A DNA stretch of 64,000 bases. Source: Thermoanaerobaculia bacterium (lineage in GTDB: Bacteria > Acidobacteriota > Thermoanaerobaculia > UBA5066). The notes beneath the pieces were generated by a model, which ran no database searches, had not been told where the DNA came from, and saw only the letters and a program-made list of their open reading frames with translations. The first letter of the stretch is position 1; every line of letters begins with the position of its first letter. Shown piece by piece: positions 5,735 through 25,113 of this stretch. The stretch lies in the NCBI GenBank assembly GCA_046331465.1, contig JAXLQV010000001.1, forward strand, positions 671,210 through 735,209. The letters run 5' to 3'. The translations under genes were made by a program, and so were the position numbers.

Positions 5735-7309
5735 ATGATGCCGGACACGAGACGGATGCTCGTCCTCGCCGCCGCGCTCCTTCCCCCCGCCGCGTTCGCA
5801 GCCCCCCCCGCCGCGCTCCCGGTGACGGCGGGCCTCGGGAGGTCGGAGGCGTGCCTCACCTGCCACGAGCAGGGGAGCCCGGGGCTCGTCGCGCACTGGC
5901 GCGACAGCGCGCACGCCCGGGCGCAGGTGGGGTGCTACGACTGCCACCAGGCGAAGAAGGGGGAGGCGGACGCCTTCGAGCACGAGGGCGTGGTCATCGC
6001 GACGGTCGTCACGCCGCGCGACTGCGGCCGCTGCCACCAGAAGGAAGACCTGCAGTTCGAGGGGAGCCACCACGCGAAGGCGGGGAACATCCTCGCCTCG
6101 CTCGACAACTACCTCGCCGAGACGGTCGAGGGAGCCCGCCTCCCGTTCAACCCCCACTCGCCCACGCCCGGGAAGGCGGCGGGCGGCCCGGTCAACGGCC
6201 TCGCGAGCGTGCAGTCCGGCTGCATGCAGTGCCACGGCGCCCGGCTGGCGCTGAAGGTCAAGGACGGCGGGGCGCCCGTGACGGTCGTCGACCTCGCGCC
6301 CGGGCCGGACGGGATGCCGACGAACGCCGCCGCGATGGCCCGGATCGTCCGGGACGCGGACGGGCGCCCGACGTTCGACAGCTCCTCGTGGCCGAACACG
6401 GGGATCGGGCGCCTCAACCTCGACGGGTCGCTCGGGTCGTGCAGCGCCTGCCACAGCCGCCACGACTTCTCGGCCCGGCGCGCGCGGCAGCCGGAGAACT
6501 GCGGCAAGTGCCACCTCGGCCCCGACCACCCGCAGAAGGAGATCTACGAGGAGTCCAAGCACGGCGTCGCCTACCGCGACCTGAAGGACAAGCTGAACCT
6601 CGACGGGAAGACGTGGGTCCTCGGGAAGGACTACTCCGCCGCGCCGACCTGCGCGACCTGCCACGTCTCGGCGACCGAGAGCGGCCTGCCGGTGACCCAC
6701 GACCCGGGGGAGCGGATCTCCTGGACGAACCGCCCGGCGGTCTCGCTCGTCATGGACACGGACGCGGCCCACAAGGTCGTGACGGAGACCGACCCCGCGA
6801 AGCGGAAGGCCCTCGTCGCCGACCCGGCCGACGCCAAGCGCGGGCGGATGAAGCAGGTCTGCGGCGAGTGCCACACCTCGGGCTACGTCGACGCGTTCTA
6901 TGGGCAGTACGACGACCTCGTCGTCCTCTACAACGAGAAGTTCGGCAAGCCCGGAACGGCCCTGATGGCCGAGCTCGCCAGGCAGGGGCTCCTGACGAAG
7001 AAGCAGTTCGACGAGAAGATCGAGTGGGAGTGGTTCTACCTCTGGCACCACGAGGGGCGCAGGGCGCGCCACGGCGCGGCGATGATGGCCCCCGACTACA
7101 CCCACTGGCACGGCATGTACGAGGTGGCCGAGCGCTTCTACCAGGGCGTGATCCCCGAGGCCCGCGAGATCGCCGCGAAGGCCGCGGCGGAGGGGAAGAA
7201 GGCGCAGGCCGACGCCGTGAACGCGCTCGTCGACTCGATCCTCGCCCGTCCCGAGCACGCCTGGTTCCTGGCCGAGAAGGCGGCCGCCCCGCCCTCGAAG
7301 CCGCACTGA
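5735..7309 (+). CDS. octaheme c-type cytochrome, hydroxylamine-oxidoreductase (HAO / epsilon-Hao) family
   Basis: Has a signal peptide and eight CxxCH motifs: CLTCH, CYDCH, CGRCH, CMQCH, CSACH, CGKCH, CATCH, CGECH. Their spacing matches the HAO family. GGAGG lies 7 nt upstream of the ATG. Confidence 0.75.
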   Translation: MMPDTRRMLVLAAALLPPAAFAAPPAALPVTAGLGRSEACLTCHEQGSPGLVAHWRDSAHARAQVGCYDCHQAKKGEADAFEHEGVVIATVVTPRDCGRCHQKEDLQFEGSHHAKAGNILASLDNYLAETVEGARLPFNPHSPTPGKAAGGPVNGLASVQSGCMQCHGARLALKVKDGGAPVTVVDLAPGPDGMPTNAAAMARIVRDADGRPTFDSSSWPNTGIGRLNLDGSLGSCSACHSRHDFSARRARQPENCGKCHLGPDHPQKEIYEESKHGVAYRDLKDKLNLDGKTWVLGKDYSAAPTCATCHVSATESGLPVTHDPGERISWTNRPAVSLVMDTDAAHKVVTETDPAKRKALVADPADAKRGRMKQVCGECHTSGYVDAFYGQYDDLVVLYNEKFGKPGTALMAELARQGLLTKKQFDEKIEWEWFYLWHHEGRRARHGAAMMAPDYTHWHGMYEVAERFYQGVIPEAREIAAKAAAEGKKAQADAVNALVDSILARPEHAWFLAEKAAAPPSKPH

Positions 7310-7330
7310 CGGGGCGCGGGGATCGGAAGG

Positions 7331-7362
7331 GAGCCGCGCCTCCGCAGGGGGAGGCGCGGCTC
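7331..7362. terminator. GC-rich stem-loop between convergent genes (bidirectional intrinsic-terminator candidate)
   Basis: Perfect 13-bp inverted repeat GAGCCGCGCCTCC / GGAGGCGCGGCTC with a 6-nt loop, in the 80-bp gap between the cytochrome stop (7309) and the M20 peptidase stop (7389). Confidence 0.4.
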
Positions 7363-7388
7363 GGAGTCCACGGCCGGCCGGAGCCGGC

Positions 7389-8768
7389 TTACGGCTTCGC
7401 GGCCGGGCCTCCGAGGAGCTCCAGCGTGGAGAAGACGAGCGCCGCGACGCCGGTGCGGATCGTCGGCCCGCGGTCGGGGGCGAACTGGGAGTTGTGCGGG
7501 CCGGGGACGAAGCGCCCTTCGGCCTTCGCCCGGCTCAGCTCGGCCGGCGCGGTCGCCCCGATGCGCAGCTGGACGGACGGGGCGCCCGCGACCCGGCCGT
7601 AGACGCCGAAGTCCTCGGAGGAGCTCGAGGGCTCGGCCGGGAGGACGTTCGCGTCGCCGAGCCCGCGGCGGAGAGCCGCCTCGAGGCGGGCGGACATGGC
7701 CGGGTCGTTCACGACGACCTCGGAGGCCTCGCGGGGGTCGACGACGACCTCGGGCTCGCGCGGCGCGCCGGAGGCGGCCGCCTCGGCCTTCGCGATCCGC
7801 GCGATCGCGGCGAGGAGCTGCTTCTGCACCTCGGGCCGGTAGGAGCGGACGGTGAGCTGGAGCTTCGCCTCGTCCGGGATGACGTTCCGCTTCGTCCCCG
7901 CGTGGAACGTCCCGACCGTGACGACGGCCGGCTCGAAGGGGTTCACCTCGCGCGACACGATGGCCTGGAGCGCAACGACGGCCCGGGCCGCCATGAGGAC
8001 CGGGTCGATCGTCCGCTGCGGCATCGCCCCGTGCCCCCCCCGGCCGAAGAACGTGACGTCGACGGCGTTCGACGCGGCCGACGCCGGCCCCGACGTGACG
8101 CCGGCGGCGCCGGAGGGGAGGAGGTTCGTCACGTGGAGGCCGAGGACGAAATCAGGCTTGGGGAAGCGGGTGAGGAGCCCGTCCTTCACCATCGCCTCGG
8201 CGCCCCGCAGCGTCTCCTCGGCCGGCTGGCCGACGAAGACGAGCGTCCCCTTCCAGCGGGTCTTCGCTTTCGCGAGGAGCGTCGCGGCGCCGACCCAGGA
8301 CGTCATGTGGACGTCGTGGCCGCAGGCGTGCATCACCGGGACGGTCTCTCCCGCGTCGTCCCTCGCCGTGACGGTGCTCGCGTAGGGAAGCCCCGTCTTC
8401 TCCGGCATCGGCAGGGCGTCCATGTCGGTCCTCACGAGGACCGTCGGCCCCTTGCCGTTCCGGAGGACTCCGACGACGCCCGTCCCGCCGACTCCCTCGG
8501 TCACCTCGAACCCGGCGGCGCGCAGCCGCGTCGCCATCTCCGCGGCCGTCCGCGCCTCGTGCGTCGAGAGCTCCGGGTTCCGGTGGAGGTCGAGGTAGAG
8601 GGCGTCGAGCGACGGGGCGAGCGCGTCGAGGCCCTCGAGGCCTCGCGGTCCCTCCGCCGCGGCGGGCGCCGGAGCCAGGGCGAGGACGGCGAGGGCGACG
8701 AGCGGGACCGTCGCGAGGCGCGGAGCGCGGAACGTTCTCCTGCCGTGGTCTTCCGGAGATCGGCTCAT
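7389..8768 (-). CDS. M20-family amidohydrolase/peptidase (M20D, hippurate-hydrolase/aminoacylase-like), secreted
   Basis: Has a signal peptide and the M20 metal-ligand regions HACGHDVH...GQPAEE...GGHGAMP. 459 aa. Confidence 0.8.
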   Translation of the reverse strand: MSRSPEDHGRRTFRAPRLATVPLVALAVLALAPAPAAAEGPRGLEGLDALAPSLDALYLDLHRNPELSTHEARTAAEMATRLRAAGFEVTEGVGGTGVVGVLRNGKGPTVLVRTDMDALPMPEKTGLPYASTVTARDDAGETVPVMHACGHDVHMTSWVGAATLLAKAKTRWKGTLVFVGQPAEETLRGAEAMVKDGLLTRFPKPDFVLGLHVTNLLPSGAAGVTSGPASAASNAVDVTFFGRGGHGAMPQRTIDPVLMAARAVVALQAIVSREVNPFEPAVVTVGTFHAGTKRNVIPDEAKLQLTVRSYRPEVQKQLLAAIARIAKAEAAASGAPREPEVVVDPREASEVVVNDPAMSARLEAALRRGLGDANVLPAEPSSSSEDFGVYGRVAGAPSVQLRIGATAPAELSRAKAEGRFVPGPHNSQFAPDRGPTIRTGVAALVFSTLELLGGPAAKP

Positions 8769-8825
8769 CCTGGCCCTCCTCGCATGCGGGCGAGTATTCC
8801 ACGGAGGCGGCGGCCTCCCCTCGCG

Positions 8826-9701
8826 TCAGCCGGGAGGGCTCCCCGCGGAAGCCGCCGCCCCCTCCGGCCGGGAGCGGTTGTAGGCGTGGGTCAGGGCGAG
8901 GGCGAAGAGGGCCGAACCGGCTCCGAGCGCGGAGTTCCAGGGCGGCGGGGCCGCGAGCGCGAGGCGGATGAAGACGGTCGCGACCGTGAAGCCGGAGTTC
9001 CGGAAGAAGACGGCGTACGTCGAGGAGTGCCGGAGCGAGACGAGGACGATGAGGACGTCGCTGAAGACGAGGACGGTGTAGAAGCCCGCGAAGACCGAGA
9101 ACGTCGGGAGGTCGGCGAGGGCGCGGTGCGCGTCGATCCCGGCGATGACGGCGAGCGCGACGAAGAGGAGGAGGCCGATCGCCTTCTTCTCTGAGACGAA
9201 GTCCCTCTGCTCTCCGCTGTCGGACGTGATCGGCCGGTGGCGCTGCGCCCGGGAGAAGGCGCAGAGGAGGACGAAGACGGCGAGCGCCCCGGTGGCGTCG
9301 GAGACCATCGGGAGGAGGCCGGCCCGGACGTTCTCCCACGCGATCGGCTCGCCGAACTCCTTGAAGCCGTGGAACGTCTCCCGGAGGAGGATGAGCGAGA
9401 GGATCTCGAACTGCTTCCCGAGCGAGTCGGAGAAGGAGTGGCTCAGGCTGAAGATGAGCGACACGACCTCGAGGAGGAGGAGGAGCGTGAAGGCGACGTC
9501 GACGGCGTAGAAGTGCTTCGCGGGGAGGCGCGCCGAGAGGGAGTCCGGGAGGAGGCCGAGCCTGCGGAGCTCGATGAGGAGGAGCGCGGCGGCGAAGGCG
9601 GCGACGAGGAGCGTGCCGATCGCCCGCTTCGTCCGCGCCGACTCCCATCCTCGCTCGAGGGCGTCGAAGGTTCGCGTGGAGGCGGCGAGGAGGCCGTTCA
9701 A
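8826..9701 (-). CDS. hypothetical polytopic membrane protein
   Basis: 291 aa with about 7 hydrophobic helices and a non-biased composition. In an operon after the DUF169 gene. Confidence 0.45.
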   Translation of the reverse strand: MNGLLAASTRTFDALERGWESARTKRAIGTLLVAAFAAALLLIELRRLGLLPDSLSARLPAKHFYAVDVAFTLLLLLEVVSLIFSLSHSFSDSLGKQFEILSLILLRETFHGFKEFGEPIAWENVRAGLLPMVSDATGALAVFVLLCAFSRAQRHRPITSDSGEQRDFVSEKKAIGLLLFVALAVIAGIDAHRALADLPTFSVFAGFYTVLVFSDVLIVLVSLRHSSTYAVFFRNSGFTVATVFIRLALAAPPPWNSALGAGSALFALALTHAYNRSRPEGAAASAGSPPG

Positions 9702-9711
9702 GGCGCCGTTC

Positions 9712-10443
9712 TCACGCGGCCTCGACGCGGCCGAGCTCCTCGATCCTCCGCTCCGCGGCCCCGGGCCGCTCCTCGCGCGCGCCGCCCGCCCCGTGGTCGA
9801 GGGCGTGGAGGATGCCGACGAGACGGTGGAACGGGACGCCGAGGAGGAGCTCGTCCTCGCCGAACGGCGCGAGCCTCCGGGCGCCGAAGTCGAGGAGGGA
9901 AAGGCCGACCTCGCCGGTCACGAGGGGATACGTCACGCCGGTCCGGCAGGCCGGCCCGGTCAGCTCGGCGCGGATCGAGGCGCCCTCGAGGAAGGACGCG
10001 AGCCCGGCGAGCCGGTGGAGCGACCCGGGAGGACCGACGAACAGGACGACGTCGGGCCGGAGGGCGGCCGTGGCGAGCGGCGCGAAGACGACGGCGCGGG
10101 CCATGCCGAGGGGAGGCGGGACGATCCCCTGGCTCCGGTGGAGCGCGGCCCGGGAGGCGTAGACCTTCTCCTTCCCGACGAGGAAGTCGACGAGGCGCTC
10201 CTTCCCCTCGGGCGGCAGCTGTCCGAGGCCGAGGCTCACGAGCCCCCCGGGGCAGCCGCAGGTCTCGGCCGAGATCGTCACCGTCTCTCCCCGGCTCGCC
10301 CTCCGGAGCGCCTGGCAGACGGATGCCCGCCCGGCGACGGACGGCTCTCCGGCCGCCGCCGTCCCTTCGAACGACACCGCGACGGGCTCCGTTTCGAGAT
10401 CGAGCTCCTTCGTCAGCCGCCCGGACCACGCCTGCCAGTACAT
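9712..10443 (-). CDS. DUF169-like conserved hypothetical protein
   Basis: 243-aa cytoplasmic-looking protein (MYWQAWSGRLTKELDLETEPVAVSFEG...CGCPGG...) of the size and look of DUF169. The assignment is tentative. Confidence 0.5.
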   Translation of the reverse strand: MYWQAWSGRLTKELDLETEPVAVSFEGTAAAGEPSVAGRASVCQALRRASRGETVTISAETCGCPGGLVSLGLGQLPPEGKERLVDFLVGKEKVYASRAALHRSQGIVPPPLGMARAVVFAPLATAALRPDVVLFVGPPGSLHRLAGLASFLEGASIRAELTGPACRTGVTYPLVTGEVGLSLLDFGARRLAPFGEDELLLGVPFHRLVGILHALDHGAGGAREERPGAAERRIEELGRVEAA

Positions 10444-10519
10444 CGGCTCCTCCTTCGCGCGCCGTCCCGTCTCTCAACGTGGGCGGGAGGCGGCGGCCCG
10501 TCAAGGAGCCCGGAACGAT

Positions 10520-11746
10520 TCACTTCTTCACGCGCGCGAGGAGCTCCTTCACGGCGTCCCTGTGGACGAGGAAGGCGAGCGTCTTGAGCTTCACGTAGTC
10601 CTCGTGGAAGAAGTAGTAGCCGGGGTGGTCGTTGTTCCAGGCGCTCGACCAGGAGTCCTTCACGAGGAACCACTCCTTCCCGCCGTGCGTCGTCCAGCCG
10701 ACGACGTGGAGGTCGTGGTCGTCCGTCGTCGTGCCGTTCGCGAAGCGGAACTGGCGGGCCGCCTCGTCGAGGAACGCCGAGGGGACGTCCCACGTCGGGA
10801 CGACGGCGATCCCGGGAGGGCCGACGGAGTAGCCCGGCTCGCTCATGTCGCTCGCCACGACGACCGTGAAGCCGCCCCGGAGCGCTCCCTTGATGGCGCC
10901 GAGGAAGGCGTCGAGCGGGACGTTGACGTACTCCTTCCCGTGCCACCAGTTGTCGGGGACGGCGTACTCCGCCTTCTCCCAGTACGGCTTCTCCATCGTG
11001 GAGAGGAAGGCGACGTAGTCGTCGGGGTTCAGGCGGACGACCTTCGCGAGGTACTCCTGCGGCGTCAGCGCCTGCCCGTCGACGACGACCTTCTCCGGCG
11101 GGGCGCCGAGGTGGTGGTCGAGGATCGCGCGGACCGTCGAGACGACCTGGGCCTCGTTCCACGCCCCCGCGGCTTTCACGCCGTCGAGGTACGCCCTGAT
11201 CTCGGCGTAGACGGTCGACTCGTGGTCGTGGTCCTTCCTCCCCTCCGTCAACCCCGTGTAGGCCTCGGCCGGGACCGCGCCGTGCTCGCGGAGGGCCCGG
11301 AGGACGGCCGCCGGCTGCGACCCCTCGCCGTAGACGGACGTCCCGCGCGACCGCACCCACCCCTTCGCCTTCTCGACGTGCTCCCAGTAGACGGTGTGGA
11401 GGGCGGAAAGCCGCAGCTCGCGCTTCGTCGTCCGGTAGACCTCGGACTCGAGGAACGACGTCGTCGAGAAGCACCAGCACATCCCCGAGAGCCCCTGGCA
11501 GACGGACGGCTGGTGCCAGGCCTTCGTGAACTCCGACACGGCCTTCGGCGCGTCGACCGCCGAGAAGTCGACCCACATCCTCTTCTTCGGCGCCGTCTCC
11601 TCGGGCCTGCGCACCTCGGCCTTGATGGCGTCGTACTTCGCGTCCTTCCGTTCCGCGAAGACGACCGTGTCGCGGCGCTCCTCGGCGGGGAGGGAGAAGG
11701 CAGGAAAAGCGGTCGCGGCGACGACGAGGAAGGCGATGGTCCTCAT
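10520..11746 (-). CDS. C1B-family cysteine peptidase (aminopeptidase C / bleomycin-hydrolase-like) with a signal peptide
   Basis: ATG at 11746 with GGAGGA upstream. Signal MRTIAFLVVAATAFPAFS. Catalytic Gln/Cys block CQGLSGMCWCFSTTSFLESE and His/Asn block HVVGWTTHGG..WFLVKDSWSSAWN..GYYFF. Confidence 0.7.
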   Translation of the reverse strand: MRTIAFLVVAATAFPAFSLPAEERRDTVVFAERKDAKYDAIKAEVRRPEETAPKKRMWVDFSAVDAPKAVSEFTKAWHQPSVCQGLSGMCWCFSTTSFLESEVYRTTKRELRLSALHTVYWEHVEKAKGWVRSRGTSVYGEGSQPAAVLRALREHGAVPAEAYTGLTEGRKDHDHESTVYAEIRAYLDGVKAAGAWNEAQVVSTVRAILDHHLGAPPEKVVVDGQALTPQEYLAKVVRLNPDDYVAFLSTMEKPYWEKAEYAVPDNWWHGKEYVNVPLDAFLGAIKGALRGGFTVVVASDMSEPGYSVGPPGIAVVPTWDVPSAFLDEAARQFRFANGTTTDDHDLHVVGWTTHGGKEWFLVKDSWSSAWNNDHPGYYFFHEDYVKLKTLAFLVHRDAVKELLARVKK

Positions 11747-15342: not shown

Positions 15343-16518
15343 GTGACGACGACGCTCGCCCTCCGCCCCGGCCGCGACGACGCCGCCCGACGGCGTCACC
15401 CGTGGGTCTTCTCGCGGGCCCTCGCGGGGAGCCCGCCCCGCGACGCGGGCGAGGCCGAGCTCCGGTCCGCTTCGGGGGCGTTCCTCGGCCGCGGCTTCTC
15501 TTCGCCGCGCTCCTCCATCGCGGCCCGGCTCTGGCGGTTCGACGAGGCGCCTCTCGACGCGGCCTTCGTGCGCGGCCTCGTGGAGGCCGCGGCGCGGCTG
15601 CGCGAGCGCCTCGTCCCGCCCGACACCGACGGCTGCCGGCTCGTCCACGCCGAGGGGGACGGCCTCCCCGGCCTCGTCGTCGACCGGTACGCGGACGTCC
15701 TCGCCCTCCAGGCGACGACGGCCGGCACCGAGGCGGCGAAGCCCCTCTGGCTGCCCGCGCTCCGCGACCTCTTCCCGCGGGCCTCGATCCTCCAGCGGAA
15801 CGACCTCCCGAGCCGTCACGGCGAGGGGCTGCCGCTCGAGGACGAGCTCCTCGCCGGAGATCCTCCGGCGGGGCGCGTCCCGTTCCGCGAGAGGGGGATG
15901 ACGTTCCTCGCGGACCTCGCGGGGGGGCAGAAGACGGGGTTCTTCCTCGACCAGCGCGAGAACCGCCACCTCGTCCGCGGCCTCGGGGGGGGGAAGAGCG
16001 TCCTGAACCTCTTCTCCTACTCCGGGGCGTTCGGTGTCGCGGCGCTCGCGGGAGGCGCCTCCCGCGTGACGCACGTCGACGTCTCCGCGCCGGCCCTCGC
16101 CCTCGCGCGGGAGAACCACGCCGCGAACGGGCAGGACCTCTCGCGCGTCGAGACGGTCGCGGCCGACGCCTTCGAGGACCTCCGCGCGCGCGTGGCCCGC
16201 GGCGAGACGTGGGACGTCGTCGTCACCGACCCGCCCGCCTTCGCGAAGAAGACGCTCGACGTCGACCGCGCCTGCCGCGGCTACAAGGACGTGAACCGCC
16301 TCGCGCTGAAGCTCCTCGCGCCGGGCGGGCTCCTCCTCGCCTGCTCCTGCTCCGGTCCCGTCTCCGCGGACCTCTTCCAGAAGGTCCTCTTCGCCGCGTC
16401 GCTCGACGCGGGCGTCCCCGTGCGCCTCCTCGAGCGGCGCGGCGCCGGCCCGGACCACCCGGTCTCGATCGACTGCCCCGAGACCGAGTACCTGAAGGCG
16501 TTCCTCCTCTCCCGGTGA
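15343..16518 (+). CDS. rlmI: 23S rRNA (cytosine1962-C5)-methyltransferase RlmI-like (PUA/EEHEE N-domain plus class I MTase)
   Basis: A GTG start gives [47 protein letters not shown].FDE. This aligns residue-for-residue with the E. coli RlmI N-terminus ([27 protein letters not shown]...ARGAYSPASQIRARVWTFD). Also [13 protein letters not shown] and DPPAF. Confidence 0.8.
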   Translation: [391 protein letters not shown]

Positions 16519-17663
16519 CGGACGTCGTCCTGCTCGGCCCGGTCCCGCCCTGGCGGAGCGGCATCGCCGACCAGACGGTGCGGCTCGCACGCGCCTTGGC
16601 GCGGCTCGGCGCGCCTCCGCTCGTCCTCACCTTCTCGCGGATGTACCCGCGAACGCTCTACCCGGGGAAGGCCGACCGGGGCGAGGGGGCCTTCCCGGCC
16701 GACCTCGAGCTCCTCCCGATCCTCGACGGTCTCGACCCTCTCTCGTTCCGGCGCGCCGCCGAGGTTGCGGCGGCGCGGGGCGCGCGCCTCGCGGCGGCGG
16801 CGTTCTGGACTTCGGTCTTCGCGCCGCACCTCGCGCTCTTCCTCTCGTCTCACCGCGCCGAGGCGCCGGGGGCACTGCGGCTCCTCCTCTGCCACAACCT
16901 CGCCGACCACGAGGCCGGCGCCCCCCGGCGCGCCCTCGCCCGGCTCGCGCTCCGGCGGGCCGACGTCCTCGCCGTCCAGAACGCGGAGGACCTCGCGACG
17001 GCGCGGCGGGAGGTGCCCGAGGCGCGCGCCGTCCTCGTGCCGCACCCATCCGAGCCGGCCGCGACCGTTCCGCGCGAGGAGGCGCGCCGCCGCCTCGACC
17101 TGCCTGCCGGCGCGCCCGTCTTCCTCTTCAGCGGGCTCCTCCGGCCGTACAAGGGCTGGGACGTCCTCCTCGCCGCGTTCGCGGAGGTGCGCCGGGCGCT
17201 CCCCGAGGCGCTCCTCCTCCTCGCCGGCGAGCCGTGGGGCGAGGCGAAGGCGCTCGCGTCGCGCCCGGCGCCGGACGGGGTCCGTCTCTTCCTCCGCTTC
17301 CTGCCGGCCGAGGAGCGGGGGCTCCTCTTCGACGCCTGTGACGCGGTCGTCTGCCCCTACCGGCACGCGACCGGCTCCGGGATCGCGGCGGACGCCGTCG
17401 CGCACGGGCGGCCCGTCCTCGGGTCGGACGTCCCGGGGCTCGCGGTCGCCGTCGAGGAGGGGGTTTCCGGCCTCCTCGTCCCTCCGGGCGACGCGGGTGC
17501 CCTCGCCGCCGCGATGCTCCGCTTCGTCCGCGAGGGGCTCGGGCCGCGCCTCGCGTCCGGGGCCGCCGCGGCGGCCGCGCGGCTCTCCCCGGAGGCGCAC
17601 GCGAAGGCCGTCCTCGAGGCGGGGGGGATCGTCCCGGGAGGGCGCCCCGGCCCGCCCGGTTAG
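16515..17663 (+). CDS. GT4-family (group 1) glycosyltransferase
   Basis: GTG start overlaps the rlmI stop (GTGA). C-terminal GT-B sugar-donor-binding region (FLPAEERGLLFDACDAVVCPYRHATGSGIAADAVAHGRPVLGSDVPGL..VEEGVSGLLVPPGD) with the E-x7-E-like motif. Confidence 0.7.
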   Translation: MTDVVLLGPVPPWRSGIADQTVRLARALARLGAPPLVLTFSRMYPRTLYPGKADRGEGAFPADLELLPILDGLDPLSFRRAAEVAAARGARLAAAAFWTSVFAPHLALFLSSHRAEAPGALRLLLCHNLADHEAGAPRRALARLALRRADVLAVQNAEDLATARREVPEARAVLVPHPSEPAATVPREEARRRLDLPAGAPVFLFSGLLRPYKGWDVLLAAFAEVRRALPEALLLLAGEPWGEAKALASRPAPDGVRLFLRFLPAEERGLLFDACDAVVCPYRHATGSGIAADAVAHGRPVLGSDVPGLAVAVEEGVSGLLVPPGDAGALAAAMLRFVREGLGPRLASGAAAAAARLSPEAHAKAVLEAGGIVPGGRPGPPG

Positions 17664-17710: not shown

Positions 17711-18772
<1,062 letters not shown>

Positions 18773-18894: not shown

Positions 18895-20892
18895 ATGAGG
18901 CTCTCCCCGCCCCTCCTCGCTCCCGCCCTCCCGGGGCTCCTTCTCCTCGCCCTCCTGCCGGCCGGCGCGCGCGCGGCCGACCCGCCGATCGACACCTCGC
19001 CTCCTCCCGCGCCGGTGAAGCTCGTCTTCGTCCACCACTCGACGGGCGAGGGGTGGCTCGCGGACGACGGGGGCGGGCTCGGAATCGCCCTGCGCGACGC
19101 CGGCTGGTTCGTGAGCGACACGAACTACGGCTGGGGTCCTCCCGACGCGGACGCGGGGGACGGGACGATCGGCGACCACACGGACATCGGGAACTGGTGG
19201 TCGTGGTTCGTCGGTCCCCACCGCGACACCTATGTCGCCGCCCTCCTCTCCGAGAGCGGGCCTCACTGCGACTACTCCCGGCGTGCCTCCGACCCGGGCG
19301 GCGCGAACCGGGTCGTGATGTTCAAGTCGTGCTTCCCGAACTCGCAGCTCGGCGGAAGCCCGTCGGACCCGGTCCCGTCCATCGCCTCGAACCCGCTTCG
19401 CGGCGAGGGGAGCGGCTCCGAGTACCACACGGTCGCGAACGCGAAAGGGATCTACCTCGCGCTGCGCGACTACTTCGCGACGCGGACCGACGTCCTCTGG
19501 GTCGTCGTCACGGCGCCGCCGCTCACCCCGGCGTCGACGGACGCCGCCGCCGCCTCGAATGCCCGCGCCTTCAACGAGTGGCTCGTGAACGAGTGGCTCG
19601 TCGGCTACCCGCAGAGGAACGTCTTCGTCTTCGACTTCTACAACGTCCTCACTTCGGACGGCGGCTCGACGCGGACGAACGACCCGGGGGCGAACGATCT
19701 CGGCTGGGCCGACGGGAACCACCACCGGGTGCGTGGCGGAGTCGTCGAGCACCTCCGGACCGTGGCGAACGACACGTCCGCCTACGGCAGCTCCCCCGAC
19801 GACAGCCACCCGACCGGCGCGGGCGGCCTCAAGGCGAGCGGCGAGCTCGTCCCGCTCCTGAACGCGGCGTGGCACTGCTGGCAGGGGACCGGGGCCTGCC
19901 CGACGGCGACGACGCCCCCCGCCTGCACGATCGGCTGCTTCGCCGTCGTCCCGGCGGAGGCGGAGGCCGGGAGCGCCCTCGGCTTCTCCGCGACGTCGAA
20001 GGTCGAGGGGTGCACGGGTGTGGCGTCCTACGACTGGGACTTCGGCGACGGCAGCCCGCACGGCGCCGGAGCGAGCGCGACGCACGCCTACGCGGCGGGG
20101 ACGTGGACCTGGCGCCTCACGGTCACGTCGGGAAGCGGGAGCTGCACGCGCACGGGGACGGTCGTCGCGACGACGGGCGGGGGAGGCGGAGGGGGCGGCA
20201 CGGCGTGGGCCGCGATCGTCCCCGCGGTGGCGCATTCGCCGGGGGACAAGGGGAGCCTCTGGCGGACGGACCTCGCCGTCGTGAACCCCGGCAGCTCCCT
20301 CGCGAGCCTGACGCTGACCTTCGTGCCGGTCGACGGCGTGCCGTCGACGCGGACGTCGACGCTCGCGGCGAACGGGACGCGCGAGTGGGCCGACGTCCTC
20401 GTCGCGCTCTTCGGCGTCGCGTCGGACGCGAGCGCGTCCGGTGCGCTCGGCATCGCTTCGGACCGGACGCTCTGCGTCGCGTCGCGGACCTTCAACCAGG
20501 GAGAGAGCGGGACGTTCGGCGGCTTCCTTCCCGCGGTGGAGCCGAAGGACGCCCTTTCGCCGGGGCAGACCGGAGTCCTCCCGCAGCTCGCGCGCAACGC
20601 CCTCTTCCGGACGAACGTCGGCGTCGCGAACCTCGGGAGCTCGGCCGTGACCGCGCGGCTCCGGCTCTGGGACGCCGACGGCGTCGCGGTGGGAGCGCCG
20701 ATCGACGTGAGCGTCCCGCCGGGCGCCCTCAACCAGGTCGTCGACCCGTTCGGCGTCGCCGGCGCGGGGGACCGCGACGTCGCGTACGCGACCGTCGAGG
20801 TGACGACGCCCGGCGGCCTCGCGTGGGCCTACGCCTCGGTCATCGACAACCGGACGGGGGACCCGACGATCGTTCCGCTCGAGGTCCCGTGA
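18895..20892 (+). CDS. secreted paralog A: signal peptide, hydrolase-like N-domain, PKD domain, Gly8 linker, and the shared roughly 200-aa C-terminal domain (unrecognised family)
   Basis: GGAGG precedes the ATG. Signal MRLSPPLLAPALPGLLLLALLPAGARA. The PKD signature WDFGDGS..TH.Y..GTWTWRLTV is present. A GGGGGGGG linker follows. The C-terminal 225 aa are homologous to the C-termini of the next two genes. Confidence 0.75.
   Translation: MRLSPPLLAPALPGLLLLALLPAGARAADPPIDTSPPPAPVKLVFVHHSTGEGWLADDGGGLGIALRDAGWFVSDTNYGWGPPDADAGDGTIGDHTDIGNWWSWFVGPHRDTYVAALLSESGPHCDYSRRASDPGGANRVVMFKSCFPNSQLGGSPSDPVPSIASNPLRGEGSGSEYHTVANAKGIYLALRDYFATRTDVLWVVVTAPPLTPASTDAAAASNARAFNEWLVNEWLVGYPQRNVFVFDFYNVLTSDGGSTRTNDPGANDLGWADGNHHRVRGGVVEHLRTVANDTSAYGSSPDDSHPTGAGGLKASGELVPLLNAAWHCWQGTGACPTATTPPACTIGCFAVVPAEAEAGSALGFSATSKVEGCTGVASYDWDFGDGSPHGAGASATHAYAAGTWTWRLTVTSGSGSCTRTGTVVATTGGGGGGGGTAWAAIVPAVAHSPGDKGSLWRTDLAVVNPGSSLASLTLTFVPVDGVPSTRTSTLAANGTREWADVLVALFGVASDASASGALGIASDRTLCVASRTFNQGESGTFGGFLPAVEPKDALSPGQTGVLPQLARNALFRTNVGVANLGSSAVTARLRLWDADGVAVGAPIDVSVPPGALNQVVDPFGVAGAGDRDVAYATVEVTTPGGLAWAYASVIDNRTGDPTIVPLEVP
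20209..20892 (+). repeat. copy 1 (most divergent) of the DNA segment encoding the shared C-terminal domain
   Basis: Encodes ..VPAVAHSPGDKGSLWRTDLAVVNPG...ASGALGIASDRTL.VASRTFN..GTFGGFLP...GVLPQL.R....RTNVGVANLG.....LRLW.ADG.A.G....VPPGAL.QV.D.F...GAGD...AYATVEVTTPGGLAWAYASVIDNRTGDPTIVPLEVP. About 55% aa identity to copies 2 and 3. Confidence 0.7.
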
Positions 20893-20905
20893 GGGAGGGC
20901 GAGCC

Positions 20906-22948
20906 GTGACCCTCCGCGACCGCACCCTCCTGTTCGCCCTGAAGTGGGCCCTCGCGGCCCTGGTCCTCCTGACGATCCTCCTCTGGAGCCGGGCGACGTC
21001 GGCCCTCCCGCAGTCCTGCGCGGGGGCCGAGCCGCCGCTCGTCACGACCCTCGACGTGAGGCAGCCGAACACCCTCGCCGAGCCGGCTCCGCGGGCCTCG
21101 TACCGCGACCCGGCGTTCGGCCGCTGCGTCACGCGGGTGACGGACCGGACCGGGGACGTCGAATCCGGCGACCCGTCCCGCGGCCTGAAGGACGAGTACT
21201 CCCGGGTCCAGGCGTGGAACGCCGACGGGTCGCTCTTTCTCCTCCGCGGCCTCGCCGGAACGACGTACGTCTGGGACGCCGCCACCCTCCGGAAGGTCCG
21301 GAAGCTCCCCGACGTCGTCGAGACCGAGCCACGCTGGGACGCGACGGACCCGAAGATCCTCTGGGCGAACGACGGGACGCGGCTCCTGCGCGTCGACGCG
21401 ACGACCGGGGAGGTGACGACGTGGCGCGACTTTGCCGGCGTCGTCCCCGGCCGGACGCTGACGTACGTCTGGACGCGATGGGAGGGGAGCCCGAGCGCCG
21501 ACGGGAGGACCTTCGGCCTGATGGCCGAGGACGAGGCGTACGAGGTCGTCGCCTTCCTCGTCTACGACCTCGCCGCCGACCGGGTCGTCGCGACGCGCGA
21601 CGTGAGCGCGTTCCCCGCGGCCCGCGCGACGGACAACGTCTCGATCAGCCTCTCGGGACGCTTCTTCCTCGCGCAGTGCGACGCCTGCCCGGCCGCGACG
21701 CTCGGCACCGACGCGAACCCGTGCGGCCTGATGGCCTGGGACCGCGACCTGAAGAACGGCCGCGGGCTCATCCGCGCCGTCGGGCACGGCGACGTCGCGT
21801 ACGACGCGTCCGGGCGGGAGGTCTTCGCCTATCAGGACAACGACACGGACGAGATCGCGTACGTCGACCTCGAGACCGGCGCGCGGACGGCGCTCCTCTC
21901 GATCGACTTCTCGAGGACGCCGATCGGCCTCCACTTCTCCGGCCGGTCCGTACGCCGCCCGGGGTGGGCGGTCGTTTCGACGCACGACGCGACGCGGACC
22001 TCGGAGGCGTGGATGGACGACTCCGTCTTCCTCGTCGAGCTGAAGCCGGGCGGGGGCGTCGTCCGCCTCGCCCACACCCGCTCCCTCGTCGACCCGGCGC
22101 AGGAGCACGACTACTGGGCCGAGCCGCACGCGACCGCGAACCGCGACCTGACGAAGGTCCTCTTCACGTCGAACTGGGGGCGCTCGGGGACGGAGGAGGT
22201 CGACACGTACCTCGTGACGCTGCCGCCCGGCTGGGCGGGCGAGGCCGCCTGCACGCCGCTCCACGTGAAGACGGTCCCGGCGGCGGCGCACGCGCCCGGC
22301 GCGTACGGAAGCCTCTGGCGGACCGACGTGGCCGTCGTGAACGCGACGGGCGCGGGGGCGTGCCTCGAGGTCCGCTTCACCCCCGCCGGCGGCGGGGAGG
22401 CGCGGACGTGGAGCGGCACGACGGCGCCCGGGACGCGCCTTTTCTCCGACGTCCTCGTCTCGCTCCTCGGCGTGGGGGCGGAGGAGAGAGCCTCGGGCGC
22501 GCTCCGCATCGCGTCGGACCGCCCGCTCGTCGTCTCCTCGCGGACCTGGAACGCGACGGAGAACGGCACGTACGGGGCGCACCTCGCGGGCGTGGGAGAG
22601 GAGCGCGCGGTGACGGAGGGGAGGCCGGGGGTCCTGCCGCAGCTGAAGAGGGGAGCGGCGAGCCGGACGAACGTCGGCCTGACGAACCCCGGGACGACCG
22701 AGGCGACGGGGTCGATCCGCCTCTTCGCCGCGAACGGGACGGCCCTCGGGAGCGCGAAGGCCGTGGCCGTCCCGGCGGGGGCGCTCGTCCAGGTGGACGA
22801 CGTCTTCGCGGCGTGCGGGGCGGGGGACGCGGCGATCGCCTGGGCGCGCGTCGACGTGGCGACTCCGGGAGGGGCGCTCTTCGCCTACGCCTCCGTCATC
22901 GACAACGCGACGTCCGACCCGACGATCGTCCCGGTGATCGTCCCGTGA
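20906..22948 (+). CDS. secreted paralog B: leader, beta-propeller-like (TolB / oligogalacturonide-lyase-like) passenger domain, and the shared C-terminal domain
   Basis: GTG start sits 7 nt after GGGAGGG. Leader MTLRDRTLLFALKWALAALVLLTILLWSRATSA. The central region has repeated propeller-blade-like segments (WDATDPKILWANDGTRLLRVDATTGEVTTWRD..). The C-terminal domain is about 80% identical to that of paralog C. Confidence 0.75.
   Translation: MTLRDRTLLFALKWALAALVLLTILLWSRATSALPQSCAGAEPPLVTTLDVRQPNTLAEPAPRASYRDPAFGRCVTRVTDRTGDVESGDPSRGLKDEYSRVQAWNADGSLFLLRGLAGTTYVWDAATLRKVRKLPDVVETEPRWDATDPKILWANDGTRLLRVDATTGEVTTWRDFAGVVPGRTLTYVWTRWEGSPSADGRTFGLMAEDEAYEVVAFLVYDLAADRVVATRDVSAFPAARATDNVSISLSGRFFLAQCDACPAATLGTDANPCGLMAWDRDLKNGRGLIRAVGHGDVAYDASGREVFAYQDNDTDEIAYVDLETGARTALLSIDFSRTPIGLHFSGRSVRRPGWAVVSTHDATRTSEAWMDDSVFLVELKPGGGVVRLAHTRSLVDPAQEHDYWAEPHATANRDLTKVLFTSNWGRSGTEEVDTYLVTLPPGWAGEAACTPLHVKTVPAAAHAPGAYGSLWRTDVAVVNATGAGACLEVRFTPAGGGEARTWSGTTAPGTRLFSDVLVSLLGVGAEERASGALRIASDRPLVVSSRTWNATENGTYGAHLAGVGEERAVTEGRPGVLPQLKRGAASRTNVGLTNPGTTEATGSIRLFAANGTALGSAKAVAVPAGALVQVDDVFAACGAGDAAIAWARVDVATPGGALFAYASVIDNATSDPTIVPVIVP
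22261..22948 (+). repeat. copy 2 of the C-terminal-domain-coding segment (imperfect direct repeat of copy 3)
   Basis: Identical or near-identical aa blocks with copy 3: GTYGAHLAGV, PGVLPQLKR, RTNVGLTN, IRLFAANGTALG, VPAGALVQVDDVFAACGAGDAAIAWARVDV, FAYASVIDNATSDPTIVPVIVP. The nucleotide sequences are clearly alignable, with mainly synonymous differences. Confidence 0.7.
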
Positions 22949-22959
22949 GGAGGTGAGCC

Positions 22960-25107
22960 GTGGCCTTTCGCGAGCGGACCCTCCTTCTCGCCTTCAAGCT
23001 CGCGCTCGCCACTCTCCTGCTTCTCTTCCTCCTCCTCCACGCCCGTCCGGCGGCGGGCGCGACGTACGTCGTCTCGCCGTCGGGAGACGACGCGAATGCG
23101 GGCACCTCGGAGCGGCCCTGGCGGACGTTCGCGCACGCGGCCGCCGTCGCCGGCCCGGGCGACCTCGTGTCGTTCCGCGGAGGGGCGTACGCGGTCCCGG
23201 ACGAGGTCGGCCTGACGCGCTCGGGGACGAGCGCCGCGCCGATCTCGTTCGTGGCGTGGACCGGCGAGACCCCGGTCCTGGACGGCGGCGGCGGGCCGGG
23301 AAGCATCGTCCACGTCCACCCGGGCGTCTCGCACATCCGCCTCTCGGGCTTCACGGTCCGCGGTTTCCGGGTCTGGGGGCTCTTCCTCGAAGGGGGAAAT
23401 CGCGGCGTCGTCCTGGACCACCTCGACGTCTCGGGGGGCGAGGCGTGCCTCCGCCTGACCGACGGCAACTCGGGCGACGCGGCGCTCCAGGGGGGCGTCG
23501 AGGACGTCCTCGTCGAGGACGGCACGTTCCACGACTCGGCGTACACGGTCATCGACTGCACGCCCGGCCCGTGCGACGGGACGACGTTCCGGCGCCTCGA
23601 GGTGAGGGGCGGGGGGCTCGGGAGCGGCATCTCCTTCGGGGCCGACGGCATCGGCCTCGAGAAGGGGCGCGCGGTCGTCGTCGAGGAGTGCTGGGTCCAC
23701 GACAACGGAGGGGACGGCGTCGACCTGAACTCGCGCGACACCTCGGGCAACGTGACGGGCGTCGTCGTCCGGCGGAACCGCGTCTCGGGGAACCGGCTCA
23801 TGGGGATCAAGCTCTGGGCGGGCGGCCGGATGGAGAACAACGCCGTCTGGGGCCAGGGGATCACGCCCGTGATGCTCGGCCGCTTCCCGGGCAGCTACGT
23901 CGTCGTGAACAACACGGTCGCGTTCAACATGTGGGACGCCGCGTTCGCCGAGCGCGACTACTCGCTCGTGGCGGGCTACCCGTGGGACGACGGGACGGCG
24001 CCCGCGATCGCGCTGACGCTCGTCGGGAACGTCTTCGCGTTCAACACGGGCCCCGCGGTGGGGAGCCCGACGGGGATCTACCTCGGGCCGAAGGTGACGC
24101 TCGTCGAGCGGAACAACCTCTGGTGGAGCCGCGAGGACAACGAGCTGCAGGCCGACTTCGTGACGGGCCGCTCCCCTGAGTTCGGCCGCGCCGAGATCCT
24201 GGACGGCACGTGGCGGGCCGCCTCGGGCCAGGGCGCCGGCGACCTCGGCGCCGACCCGCGCTTCGCGGGGGCGTGGCCTTCGGTCGACCTCCACCTCCTC
24301 GAGGGGAGCCCGGCGATCGACGCGGCGGACGCGGCGCTCGCCCCTTCGGTCGACCTCGAGGGACGGGCGCGCGACTCCCGGCCGGACGTCGGCGCGTACG
24401 AGAAGGGGAGCGCGTCGCCGCAGCCGTACGTCCGCGTCGTCCCGGCGGTGGCGCACGCCCCCGGCAGCTGGGGAAGCCTCTGGCGGACCGACGTCGATGC
24501 GGTGAACCCGGGCGCGCCGGCGACGGCGACGCTCACCTTCCGGACCGCGGGCGGAGACGTCTCGACGCGGACGACGGCGATCCCGACCGGCGCGACGCGC
24601 TTCCCCGACGTCCTCGCGACGCTCTTCGGCGTCGGGGCGGACGCGAAGGCCTCGGGCGCGCTCGAGATCGCGTCGGAACGCCCGCTCGTCGTCTCGTCGC
24701 GGACCTTCAACGCCGCCGAGAGCGGGACGTACGGTGCGCACCTCGCGGGCGTCACCGAGGCGCGGGCCGCGACGCCGGGGCGGCCGGGGGTCCTCCCTCA
24801 GCTGAAGCGGAGCGCGGCCGTGCGGACGAACGTCGGCCTGACGAACCTCGGCACGGCCGGGGTGACGGCCGCGATCCGCCTCTTCGCGGCCGACGGGACC
24901 GCCCTCGGCGGCGAATCGCTCGTCGAGGTCCCGGCGGGCGCGCTCGTCCAGGTCGACGACGTCTTCTCCGCCTGCGGGGCGGGCGACGCCGCAATCGCCT
25001 GGGCGCGGGTCGAGGTGCGGACGCCCGGCGGGCGCGCCTTCGCCTACGCGTCGGTCATCGACAACGCGACGGGCGACCCGACGATCGTTCCCCTGATCGT
25101 CCCGTGA
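22960..25107 (+). CDS. secreted paralog C: leader, right-handed parallel beta-helix (pectate-lyase / NosD-like) passenger domain, and the shared C-terminal domain
   Basis: GTG start sits after GAGGAGGTGA. Leader MAFRERTLLLAFKLALATLLLLFLLLHARPAAGA is similar to B's. PbH1-like repeats (IRLSGFTVRGFRVWGLFLEGGNRGVVLDHLDVSGG; VVVEECWVHDNGGDGVDLNS; VVVRRNRVSGNRLMGIKLW). C-terminal domain as in A and B. Confidence 0.75.
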   Translation: MAFRERTLLLAFKLALATLLLLFLLLHARPAAGATYVVSPSGDDANAGTSERPWRTFAHAAAVAGPGDLVSFRGGAYAVPDEVGLTRSGTSAAPISFVAWTGETPVLDGGGGPGSIVHVHPGVSHIRLSGFTVRGFRVWGLFLEGGNRGVVLDHLDVSGGEACLRLTDGNSGDAALQGGVEDVLVEDGTFHDSAYTVIDCTPGPCDGTTFRRLEVRGGGLGSGISFGADGIGLEKGRAVVVEECWVHDNGGDGVDLNSRDTSGNVTGVVVRRNRVSGNRLMGIKLWAGGRMENNAVWGQGITPVMLGRFPGSYVVVNNTVAFNMWDAAFAERDYSLVAGYPWDDGTAPAIALTLVGNVFAFNTGPAVGSPTGIYLGPKVTLVERNNLWWSREDNELQADFVTGRSPEFGRAEILDGTWRAASGQGAGDLGADPRFAGAWPSVDLHLLEGSPAIDAADAALAPSVDLEGRARDSRPDVGAYEKGSASPQPYVRVVPAVAHAPGSWGSLWRTDVDAVNPGAPATATLTFRTAGGDVSTRTTAIPTGATRFPDVLATLFGVGADAKASGALEIASERPLVVSSRTFNAAESGTYGAHLAGVTEARAATPGRPGVLPQLKRSAAVRTNVGLTNLGTAGVTAAIRLFAADGTALGGESLVEVPAGALVQVDDVFSACGAGDAAIAWARVEVRTPGGRAFAYASVIDNATGDPTIVPLIVP
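24421..25107 (+). repeat. copy 3 of the C-terminal-domain-coding segment
   Basis: ..VPAVAHAPGSWGSLWRTDVDAVNPG...GTYGAHLAGV..PGVLPQLKR..RTNVGLTN..IRLFAADGTALG..VPAGALVQVDDVFSACGAGDAAIAWARVEV.TPGG.AFAYASVIDNATGDPTIVPLIVP. Confidence 0.7.
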
Positions 25108-25113
25108 GCCGCG

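Follow-up and report, generated by a model that had tools for sequence, protein, structure and literature searches.

The ASRAH superfamily (Anabaena sensory rhodopsin transducer / TM1070, PF07100) was defined by De Souza, Iyer and Aravind in 2009 (PMC2739507). Its hallmarks are a conserved Trp, preceded by a polar residue, where strand 1 begins, and a near-invariant Asn that ends strand 2, and its extracellular members occur as dyads or tetrads for which sugar binding was predicted (PMC2739507). Two other kinds of described system are relevant to the locus presented in this study. One comprises non-catalytic modules shared between proteins, such as carbohydrate-binding modules, dockerins and the C-terminal domains (CTDs) of the type IX secretion system (T9SS). 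The other is repeat-mediated deletion and gene conversion in tandem gene arrays (concerted evolution). Here, we analyze a 64,000-nucleotide stretch of DNA (the window) from a Thermoanaerobaculia bacterium (GenBank assembly GCA_046331465.1, contig JAXLQV010000001.1, positions 671,210 to 735,209), which has a base composition of 73% G+C and carries long direct repeats in three tandem genes, A, B and C. What the direct repeats encode is a single C-terminal module of ~225 residues that these three adjacent secreted-enzyme genes have in common. The explanation that we consider probable as a whole is that the copies diverged long ago, that the module belongs to the ASRAH superfamily, and that recombination made the variants of the array found in related genomes.

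Genes A (18895-20892, 665 aa), B (20906-22948, 680 aa) and C (22960-25107, 715 aa) follow one another on the + strand, as delimited by translation and by frame-specific analysis of G+C content at third codon positions (GC3; 0.95 in the frame of gene A). They are separated by spacers of 13 nt between A and B and 11 nt between B and C. In both cases a TGA stop is followed by a spacer containing a GGAGG-like Shine-Dalgarno motif, with a GTG start codon next. The A/B junction reads cccgTGAgggagggcgagccGTG (20887-20909) and has its TGA and GGGAGG-containing spacer at 20890-20905, ahead of the GTG of B, while the B/C junction reads cccgTGAggaggtgagccGTG (22943-22963) and has its TGA and GGAGG spacer at 22946-22959, ahead of the GTG of C. 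All junctions of 12 related loci show the same layout, TGA plus a G-rich stretch of 10-13 nt plus a start codon. Similarity between the junctions extends into the leaders, with 76% identity over 72 nt between the A/B junction plus B leader (20884-20955) and the B/C junction plus C leader (22940-23009); the leader of gene A is unrelated to both. The B leader (20906-21004, 33 codons, LKWALAALVLL..LLWSRA) is a predicted Sec signal peptide of a type that we call Lb, and the C leader (22960-23061, 34 codons, ending ..LLLHARPAAGA) is of the Lc type; these signal-peptide assignments come from sequence alone. The neighbours A, B and C are probably translationally coupled, and each encodes a predicted signal peptide, its own extracellular domain and the common module.

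The module copies are located at 20215-20889 in A (a-type, 225 codons), 22265-22945 in B (b-type) and 24430-25104 in C (c-type), all on the + strand. The copy in A was recovered by tblastn with the C module at 60% amino-acid identity (E 2e-72). At the nucleotide level, blastn aligned 22274-22949 in B with 24439-25108 in C at 79.1% identity over 683 nt, and the A segment 20210-20893 was 71.9% identical to the C copy and 69.6% to the B copy. A repeat search returned families of three copies that lie in register, 2056 and 2159 nt apart. The original prediction concerned the interval from the start of the C-terminal segment of B to the end of C (22261-25107), and part of what it described is borne out. 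The C-terminal segments of B and C do align as nucleotide sequences, the two 27-mers that it quoted occur at 22781 and 24940 and nowhere else, and the quoted A/B and B/C junction strings were located and are alike. The gene middles (B ~20956-22273 and C ~23010-24438), which it had called unrelated, gave no alignment with each other by blastp or blastn. No module copy was found in the 64-kb window beyond those in A, B and C.

The alignment-based AlphaFold model of the C module (predicted local distance difference test, pLDDT, 92.5; predicted template modelling score, pTM, 0.84) consists of two beta-sandwiches. An hhalign comparison showed one half to be homologous to the other (93%, E 2.5e-7), and this is also visible in the DNA as a repeat family (D3). 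In gene A, for example, 20262-20336 matches 20607-20681, with equivalents in B and C, which marks an internal duplication of two ~100-residue halves. Both halves contain the motif R-T-D/N-x4-N-x-G, and the module ends at the protein C-terminus with the conserved motif YASVIDNxTGDPTIVP. The modelled beta-sandwich is superposable on TM1070 (1NC7) and ASRT (2II7). The first half shows both ASRAH hallmarks, with the strand-1 Trp in GS-L-W-RTD and the strand-2 Asn in VN(P/A)G, where N26 is conserved in at least 90% of sequences; in the second half the Asn pattern is still present (RTNVGLTNLG), with V or F at the Trp position. Weak matches to PF07100 were obtained for 5 of 28 family members (best 3.2e-5) and to DUF5719 for 2 of 28 relatives (2.2e-5), whereas the modules of the window had no PF07100 match at E<=1. 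A PDB sequence search with the family profile returned PKD contamination only.

Judged from the model and these motifs, the module is two homologous ASRT/TM1070-like (ASRAH) beta-sandwich domains, that is, a predicted extracellular dyad attached to enzymes, as in described members of the superfamily. It differs from them in its own motifs (RTD/RTN...N.G and the terminal YASVIDNxTGDPT) and in its distribution, which is acidobacterial, whereas the extracellular ASRAH families are from Chloroflexi or Actinobacteria. In addition, it is found at the C-terminus of many different domains and is not tied to an amidase or a lipoprotein. The module forms an undescribed acidobacterial branch, of very large size, within this known superfamily.

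The size of this branch is evident from a full search with a hidden Markov model (HMM), which returned 11,416 representative clusters with the threshold set at E<=1e-3 and 3,621 with it set at E<=1e-30. A scan of species-representative genomes gave 340 module copies, and the best 80 of the 340 were almost all from metagenome-assembled genomes (MAGs) of Thermoanaerobaculia, Holophagae or other Acidobacteriota, often several per MAG. The idea that the module is rare, raised by a word-indexed search that gave 25 proteins, was rejected: that search missed true orthologues, and exhaustive profile and domain-based searches found many. The N-terminal partners of the module include PKD, trypsin-like peptidase, TIG, PPC and BACON domains. 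In 149 of the 150 best-scoring members (P0026-P0175) two tandem modules lie ~7 aa apart, and the proteins reach 2,700 aa and mostly have no Pfam domain. A profile of the module would annotate thousands of proteins now called hypothetical, and the family provides a testable extracellular case for the ASRAH sugar-binding hypothesis.

From its predicted fold and its architecture, we infer that the module may be a carbohydrate-binding or cell-surface-retention unit, which would direct enzymes of different kinds to a common glycan or surface. Among the alternatives, the one that survives best is that it is not a binding unit but a lineage-specific C-terminal secretion or sorting signal, analogous to the T9SS CTD and served by dedicated export or attachment machinery. 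The position of the module is what such a signal would have: the last copy lies <=10 aa from the C-terminus in 118 of the 150 top hits of the HMM search (median, 1 residue after it), the terminal motif is very conserved, and within one phylum many copies per genome are attached to unrelated N-terminal domains. In gene C, moreover, the module comes just after a choice-of-anchor Q domain (aa 444-481; NF041518 choice_anch_Q, E 9e-10). Domains that NCBI names choice-of-anchor precede alternative C-terminal sorting signals. These same traits, namely strict C-terminal position, high copy number per genome, restriction to a lineage and unrelated N-terminal domains, are compatible with a binding module as well. 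Other properties argue against a signal, including a length of 225 aa that comprises two complete sandwiches of a superfamily with predicted sugar binding (PMC2739507), the two tandem modules, and hence four ASRAH domains, that all but one of the 150 top hits contain, and the >50 residues that follow the last copy in 28 of them. The module also gave no NCBIfam or Pfam match to known sorting-signal models (T9SS CTD, PEP-CTERM and similar), and no candidate for a dedicated export machinery was identified among the neighbours in the window. We regard the sorting signal as possible but doubtful.

Returning to the binding module, the locus has much in common with described shared non-catalytic modules, as one C-terminal module stands behind unrelated catalytic domains of neighbouring genes, and the phylogenies of module and catalytic domain are discordant. 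It departs from them in belonging to another fold family, in that binding or sorting is here a prediction, and in that exchange can be traced at one syntenic locus with identifiable leader breakpoints. Domain shuffling around a non-catalytic module that several genes share is a well-known phenomenon, which is well documented here. A bolder proposal would be that throughout Thermoanaerobaculia and Holophagae the ASRAH dyad serves as an undescribed C-terminal device for surface retention or sorting, whose coding sequence, together with the shared leader, acts as portable homology for swapping, fusing and dropping enzyme domains between neighbouring genes and strains. This we hold to be speculative.

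The enzyme domains in front of the module are of three different kinds. Gene A encodes a predicted signal peptide, an N-terminal domain (aa ~28-345), a PKD domain (aa 353-425; PKD_4, E 9e-13) and the module, and its orthologues in the related loci L003, L004 and L005 are 76-78% identical. The N-terminal domain (18976-19929, ~320 aa) is conserved, and neither Pfam nor PDB sequence searches gave a match to it, even when a profile of its orthologues was used. Its invariant HHSTGE...CFPNS...DDSHP is reminiscent, as a set of motifs, of blocks I, III and V of SGNH hydrolases. The enzyme domain of B (21005-22264, + strand) is predicted by AlphaFold2 to be an all-beta propeller (pLDDT 90.8, pTM 0.90). 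This model superposes best on the PL22 oligogalacturonate lyases 3pe7 and 3c5m (TM 0.60-0.68) but is only 13-16% identical to them, and the two are likened by fold alone. The enzyme domain of C (23062-24429, + strand), a predicted right-handed, PL9-like beta-helix, matches the Beta_helix profile PF13229 (E 5e-9) and the Pel9A-like profile PF22842 (E 8e-6; 25.4 bits against a cut-off of 25.2); its score against the PelN equivalog is 51.7, where the cut-off is 740. By these comparisons, B resembles an oligogalacturonate lyase in its predicted beta-propeller fold, and C has a predicted pectate-lyase-like beta-helix. An esterase, an endo-lyase and an oligo-lyase would be coherent as a polyuronide-degrading trio.

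Both the B domain (894 homologues) and the C domain (545 homologues) have large families of their own. Among the matches listed, most are stand-alone proteins, of ~460 aa and 55-62% identity for B and of ~500 aa and 53-60% identity for C, and Chloroflexi appear among the few listed members with source annotation. B and C are thus paralogous in leader and module only, with enzyme domains that come from separate widespread families. Since each of the two domains belongs to its own stand-alone family, the array is not one gene that was duplicated and had its middle replaced. The cassette-like exchange of gene middles put forward in the original prediction therefore holds in part: modular exchange is seen in relatives, but this array did not arise from one gene with a swapped middle. 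An ancient three-enzyme operon was considered and rejected after a search for a conserved A, B and C trio outside the lineage; P0339, a stand-alone homologue of B, has unrelated housekeeping genes around it and no C homologue adjacent, and the propeller and beta-helix neighbours in L001 are not detectable homologues.

Related genomes carry the array at a syntenic site, flanked upstream by a SAM-methyltransferase, a glycosyltransferase and a hypothetical gene, and downstream by an aldo-keto reductase, a hypothetical gene, Fpg and SpoIIE. The order A-B-C is found in the window, in L089, and in essentially identical form in two independent assemblies, L002 (SRR26348422) and L096 (ERZ724513). L003 and L004 have A-B, and L005, L082, L084, L085, L087, L088 and L091 have A-C. 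In all variants the junctions are precise and in-frame. The b and c types of module differ mainly in the first ~75 codons, and this allows leader and module to be followed separately. All 13 B genes have a b-type module. Among C genes, a C leader is combined with a c-type module in the window, P0176, P0178 and P0180-P0183, and with a b-type module in P0179, P0184, P0186 and P0187, whereas P0177 (L088) and P0185 (L087) have a B leader and a b-type module. In these last two genes, which come from two separate sequencing runs, the match to B leaders (0.87-0.97) holds to nucleotide ~85-95 of the gene and is then replaced by a match to C genes (0.90-0.93). A leader switch of this kind would be expected if an L089-like array had lost a segment through recombination of its B leader with its C leader.

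Some further arrangements were observed at these loci. The B-type signal peptide on the C gene lies at 5062-5160 in L087 and at 3119-3215 in L088; the switch adjoins the predicted cleavage site, and both arrays are without B. In L008 (MAG JAKOVQ01, 6499-10648), an 857-aa open reading frame (ORF) consists of a B-like propeller (65% identical), a PKD domain and an a-like module, and the A-like gene before it appears to end early in its module. A 1.75-kb contig from a JGI metagenome (P0001) has one ORF in which the end of an a-type module (…IVPLELP) is joined by a 15-residue linker to a complete b-type module. Judging by its sequence, two array genes may have lost the leader and enzyme domain that lay between them, or the protein may naturally have two modules.

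We infer that homologous recombination among the leader, junction and module repeats made the variants. In the course of evolution, these three kinds of repeated sequence would serve as its substrates: recombination of leader with leader, or of the 3' end of a module with a junction, would delete a gene, and exchange between modules would place a B-type module on a C gene. Likenesses to repeat-mediated deletion and gene conversion in tandem arrays are the direct repeats of the same orientation that flank the lost segments, and the surviving genes, which are in-frame chimeras (B leader on C domain in L087 and L088). A difference is that the repeats of the window are only 77-79% identical. Repeats of that identity are a poor substrate for RecA-type recombination, and the recombination events seen are ancient or took place in other lineages. 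The window's array may itself be an inter-lineage recombinant, as suggested by tree placements that disagree: the A gene puts the window with L089 and L005 (92% bootstrap) and the whole C gene with L082 (100%). The locus offers a clean natural series (A-B-C, A-B, A-C and leader chimeras) of shared leader and module sequences that probably mediate the loss and reassortment of enzyme domains.

The remaining explanation for these variants is pure constraint, in which a conserved domain was used three times and arrays differ by independent gain and loss of genes, without recombination between repeats. It accords with the finding that amino-acid conservation and codon bias explain most of the nucleotide identity, and with both enzyme domains being independent, widespread families. 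In addition, the tree of the C domains largely agrees with the type of module; some of the b/c pattern could therefore reflect vertical divergence of C genes plus a single old exchange between B and C in place of repeated ones. Constraint alone does not account for the sharp breakpoint of the L087 and L088 chimera in two separate runs, nor for the exact in-frame junctions that gene loss has left in all variants. The B modules of the window and L089 group with modules of C genes (L092_C, L005_C and L089_C) and not with the B modules of L003 and L004 (80% bootstrap), and the B orthologues P0299 and P0306 have modules with c-like tails. Finally, the pairwise homoplasy index (PHI) of 15 B and C modules was 0.720, compared to 0.755 +/- 0.006 after permutation (p=0.001). 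We therefore judge pure constraint to be unlikely, and somewhat more so than the sorting signal. Presence or absence of genes at a syntenic site, chimeras with mappable breakpoints and the PHI signal are what a recombination-shuffled array shows, here in metagenome assemblies. The earlier suggestion that recombination could delete members of the array is supported through other genomes only, by the A-B and A-C variants, the L087 and L088 chimeras and the PHI test.

The age of the B and C copies is a separate matter. Over 224 aligned codons, B and C have 119 identical codons and 105 that differ, 38 of them synonymously and 67 with an amino-acid change (64% of the differing codons). Base differences at codon positions 1, 2 and 3 number 44, 45 and 68, and only 43% fall at position 3; the claim that the divergence is mostly synonymous and at third positions is thus contradicted. 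Nei-Gojobori counts were 64 synonymous and 110 non-synonymous differences, giving a ratio of non-synonymous to synonymous rates (dN/dS) of 0.61, which is not interpretable at a GC3 of 96%, where synonymous sites are effectively two-state and near saturation.

It had been stated beforehand that a recent origin would fall if nucleotide identity were no higher than protein conservation predicts. Nucleotide identity is higher, at 0.755 compared to 0.705 +/- 0.011 expected from back-translation of the protein alignment with the codon usage of the array (z 4.5), but the margin over expectation is small. Identical residues use the same codon in 111 of 152 cases, where 88.5 are expected. Two unrelated codons for one residue often coincide here, because the GC3 of the array (0.96) makes third positions nearly two-state, and an excess of similar size exists between orthologues of different genomes. 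With W_B and W_C denoting the modules of the B and C genes of the window, the last two-thirds of the module gave 0.81 nucleotide identity for W_B and W_C (same codons 80/112), 0.82 for W_B and L089_B (75/119) and 0.83 for W_C and L082_C (79/114). Most of the nucleotide similarity between B and C follows from protein-level conservation and extreme codon bias. More generally, at 73% GC and 96% GC3, 75-79% nucleotide identity of domain-coding segments is about what protein conservation alone gives and is no sign of recent duplication.

Comparison with other genomes points in the same direction. Recent duplication or conversion would make paralogues closer to each other than to their orthologues, and the opposite was found. 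Whole modules W_B and W_C are 77% identical at the nucleotide level, whereas W_B is 84-86% identical to modules elsewhere (L089_B, L087_C and L092) and W_C is 82% identical to L082_C; the housekeeping flanks of the array in these genomes are 82-93% identical. Neighbour-joining (NJ) trees with codon bootstrap unite W_C with L082_C at 98-100%, for module and enzyme domain alike, and place W_B in a separate clade with 100% support. In sliding windows, an orthologue is the nearest sequence to each copy almost everywhere. A GENECONV-style test of W_B against W_C found no conversion tract (longest run, 9 matching variable sites; p=0.85). As far as their sequences tell, the module copies that B and C carry in the window are old paralogues and not the product of recent duplication or conversion. 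That they arose from, or were homogenised by, such an event in this genome and then diverged mainly by synonymous change, as the original prediction had it, is very improbable, since the like junctions and leaders, the 5-point excess in identity, the same-codon excess and a W_B-W_C identity at the upper edge of b-versus-c comparisons are outweighed by the amino-acid changes, by the closer orthologues with their own same-codon excess, by the trees and by the missing tract.

Several points weigh against our explanation of the locus by an old ASRAH module and recombination. Comparisons of b with c modules from different genomes range from 71 to 77% identity, and the 77% shared by B and C within this genome equals the highest of these, so that a small, old homogenisation of B and C within the genome is conceivable. 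The proposed binding or anchoring role is drawn from fold, architecture and the 2009 computational paper only, and the modules of the window themselves give no Pfam or NCBIfam match. The enzyme assignments of B and C are fold or borderline profile matches. The comparison loci are all metagenome assemblies, in which chimeric contigs are possible. One of them, L092, has a module in its upstream gene (1-526) that equals the C module (2163-2688) for 457 nt (100%), with the last ~70 nt diverging; this tract may be a very recent conversion or a de Bruijn/assembly loop artefact. L092 had been considered as a conversion caught in the act (99% identity) and was downgraded, since the 457-nt tract abuts the contig end at 1.9x coverage.

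Two neighbours upstream of the array deserve mention. The 753-aa ORF at 15402-17663 is probably an over-extended call, because its counterparts in L082 and L085 are two separate overlapping genes, one for a 391-aa PUA/SAM-methyltransferase and the other for a GT1 glycosyltransferase of ~380 aa, and only the GT1 part has a Pfam match. Directly upstream of A, 17711-18772 encodes a 353-aa protein without a Pfam match. This gene is conserved in L082, L085, L088, L004 and others, at only ~73-76% nucleotide identity to the copies in these relatives, and it may belong to the same unit as the A-B-C array.

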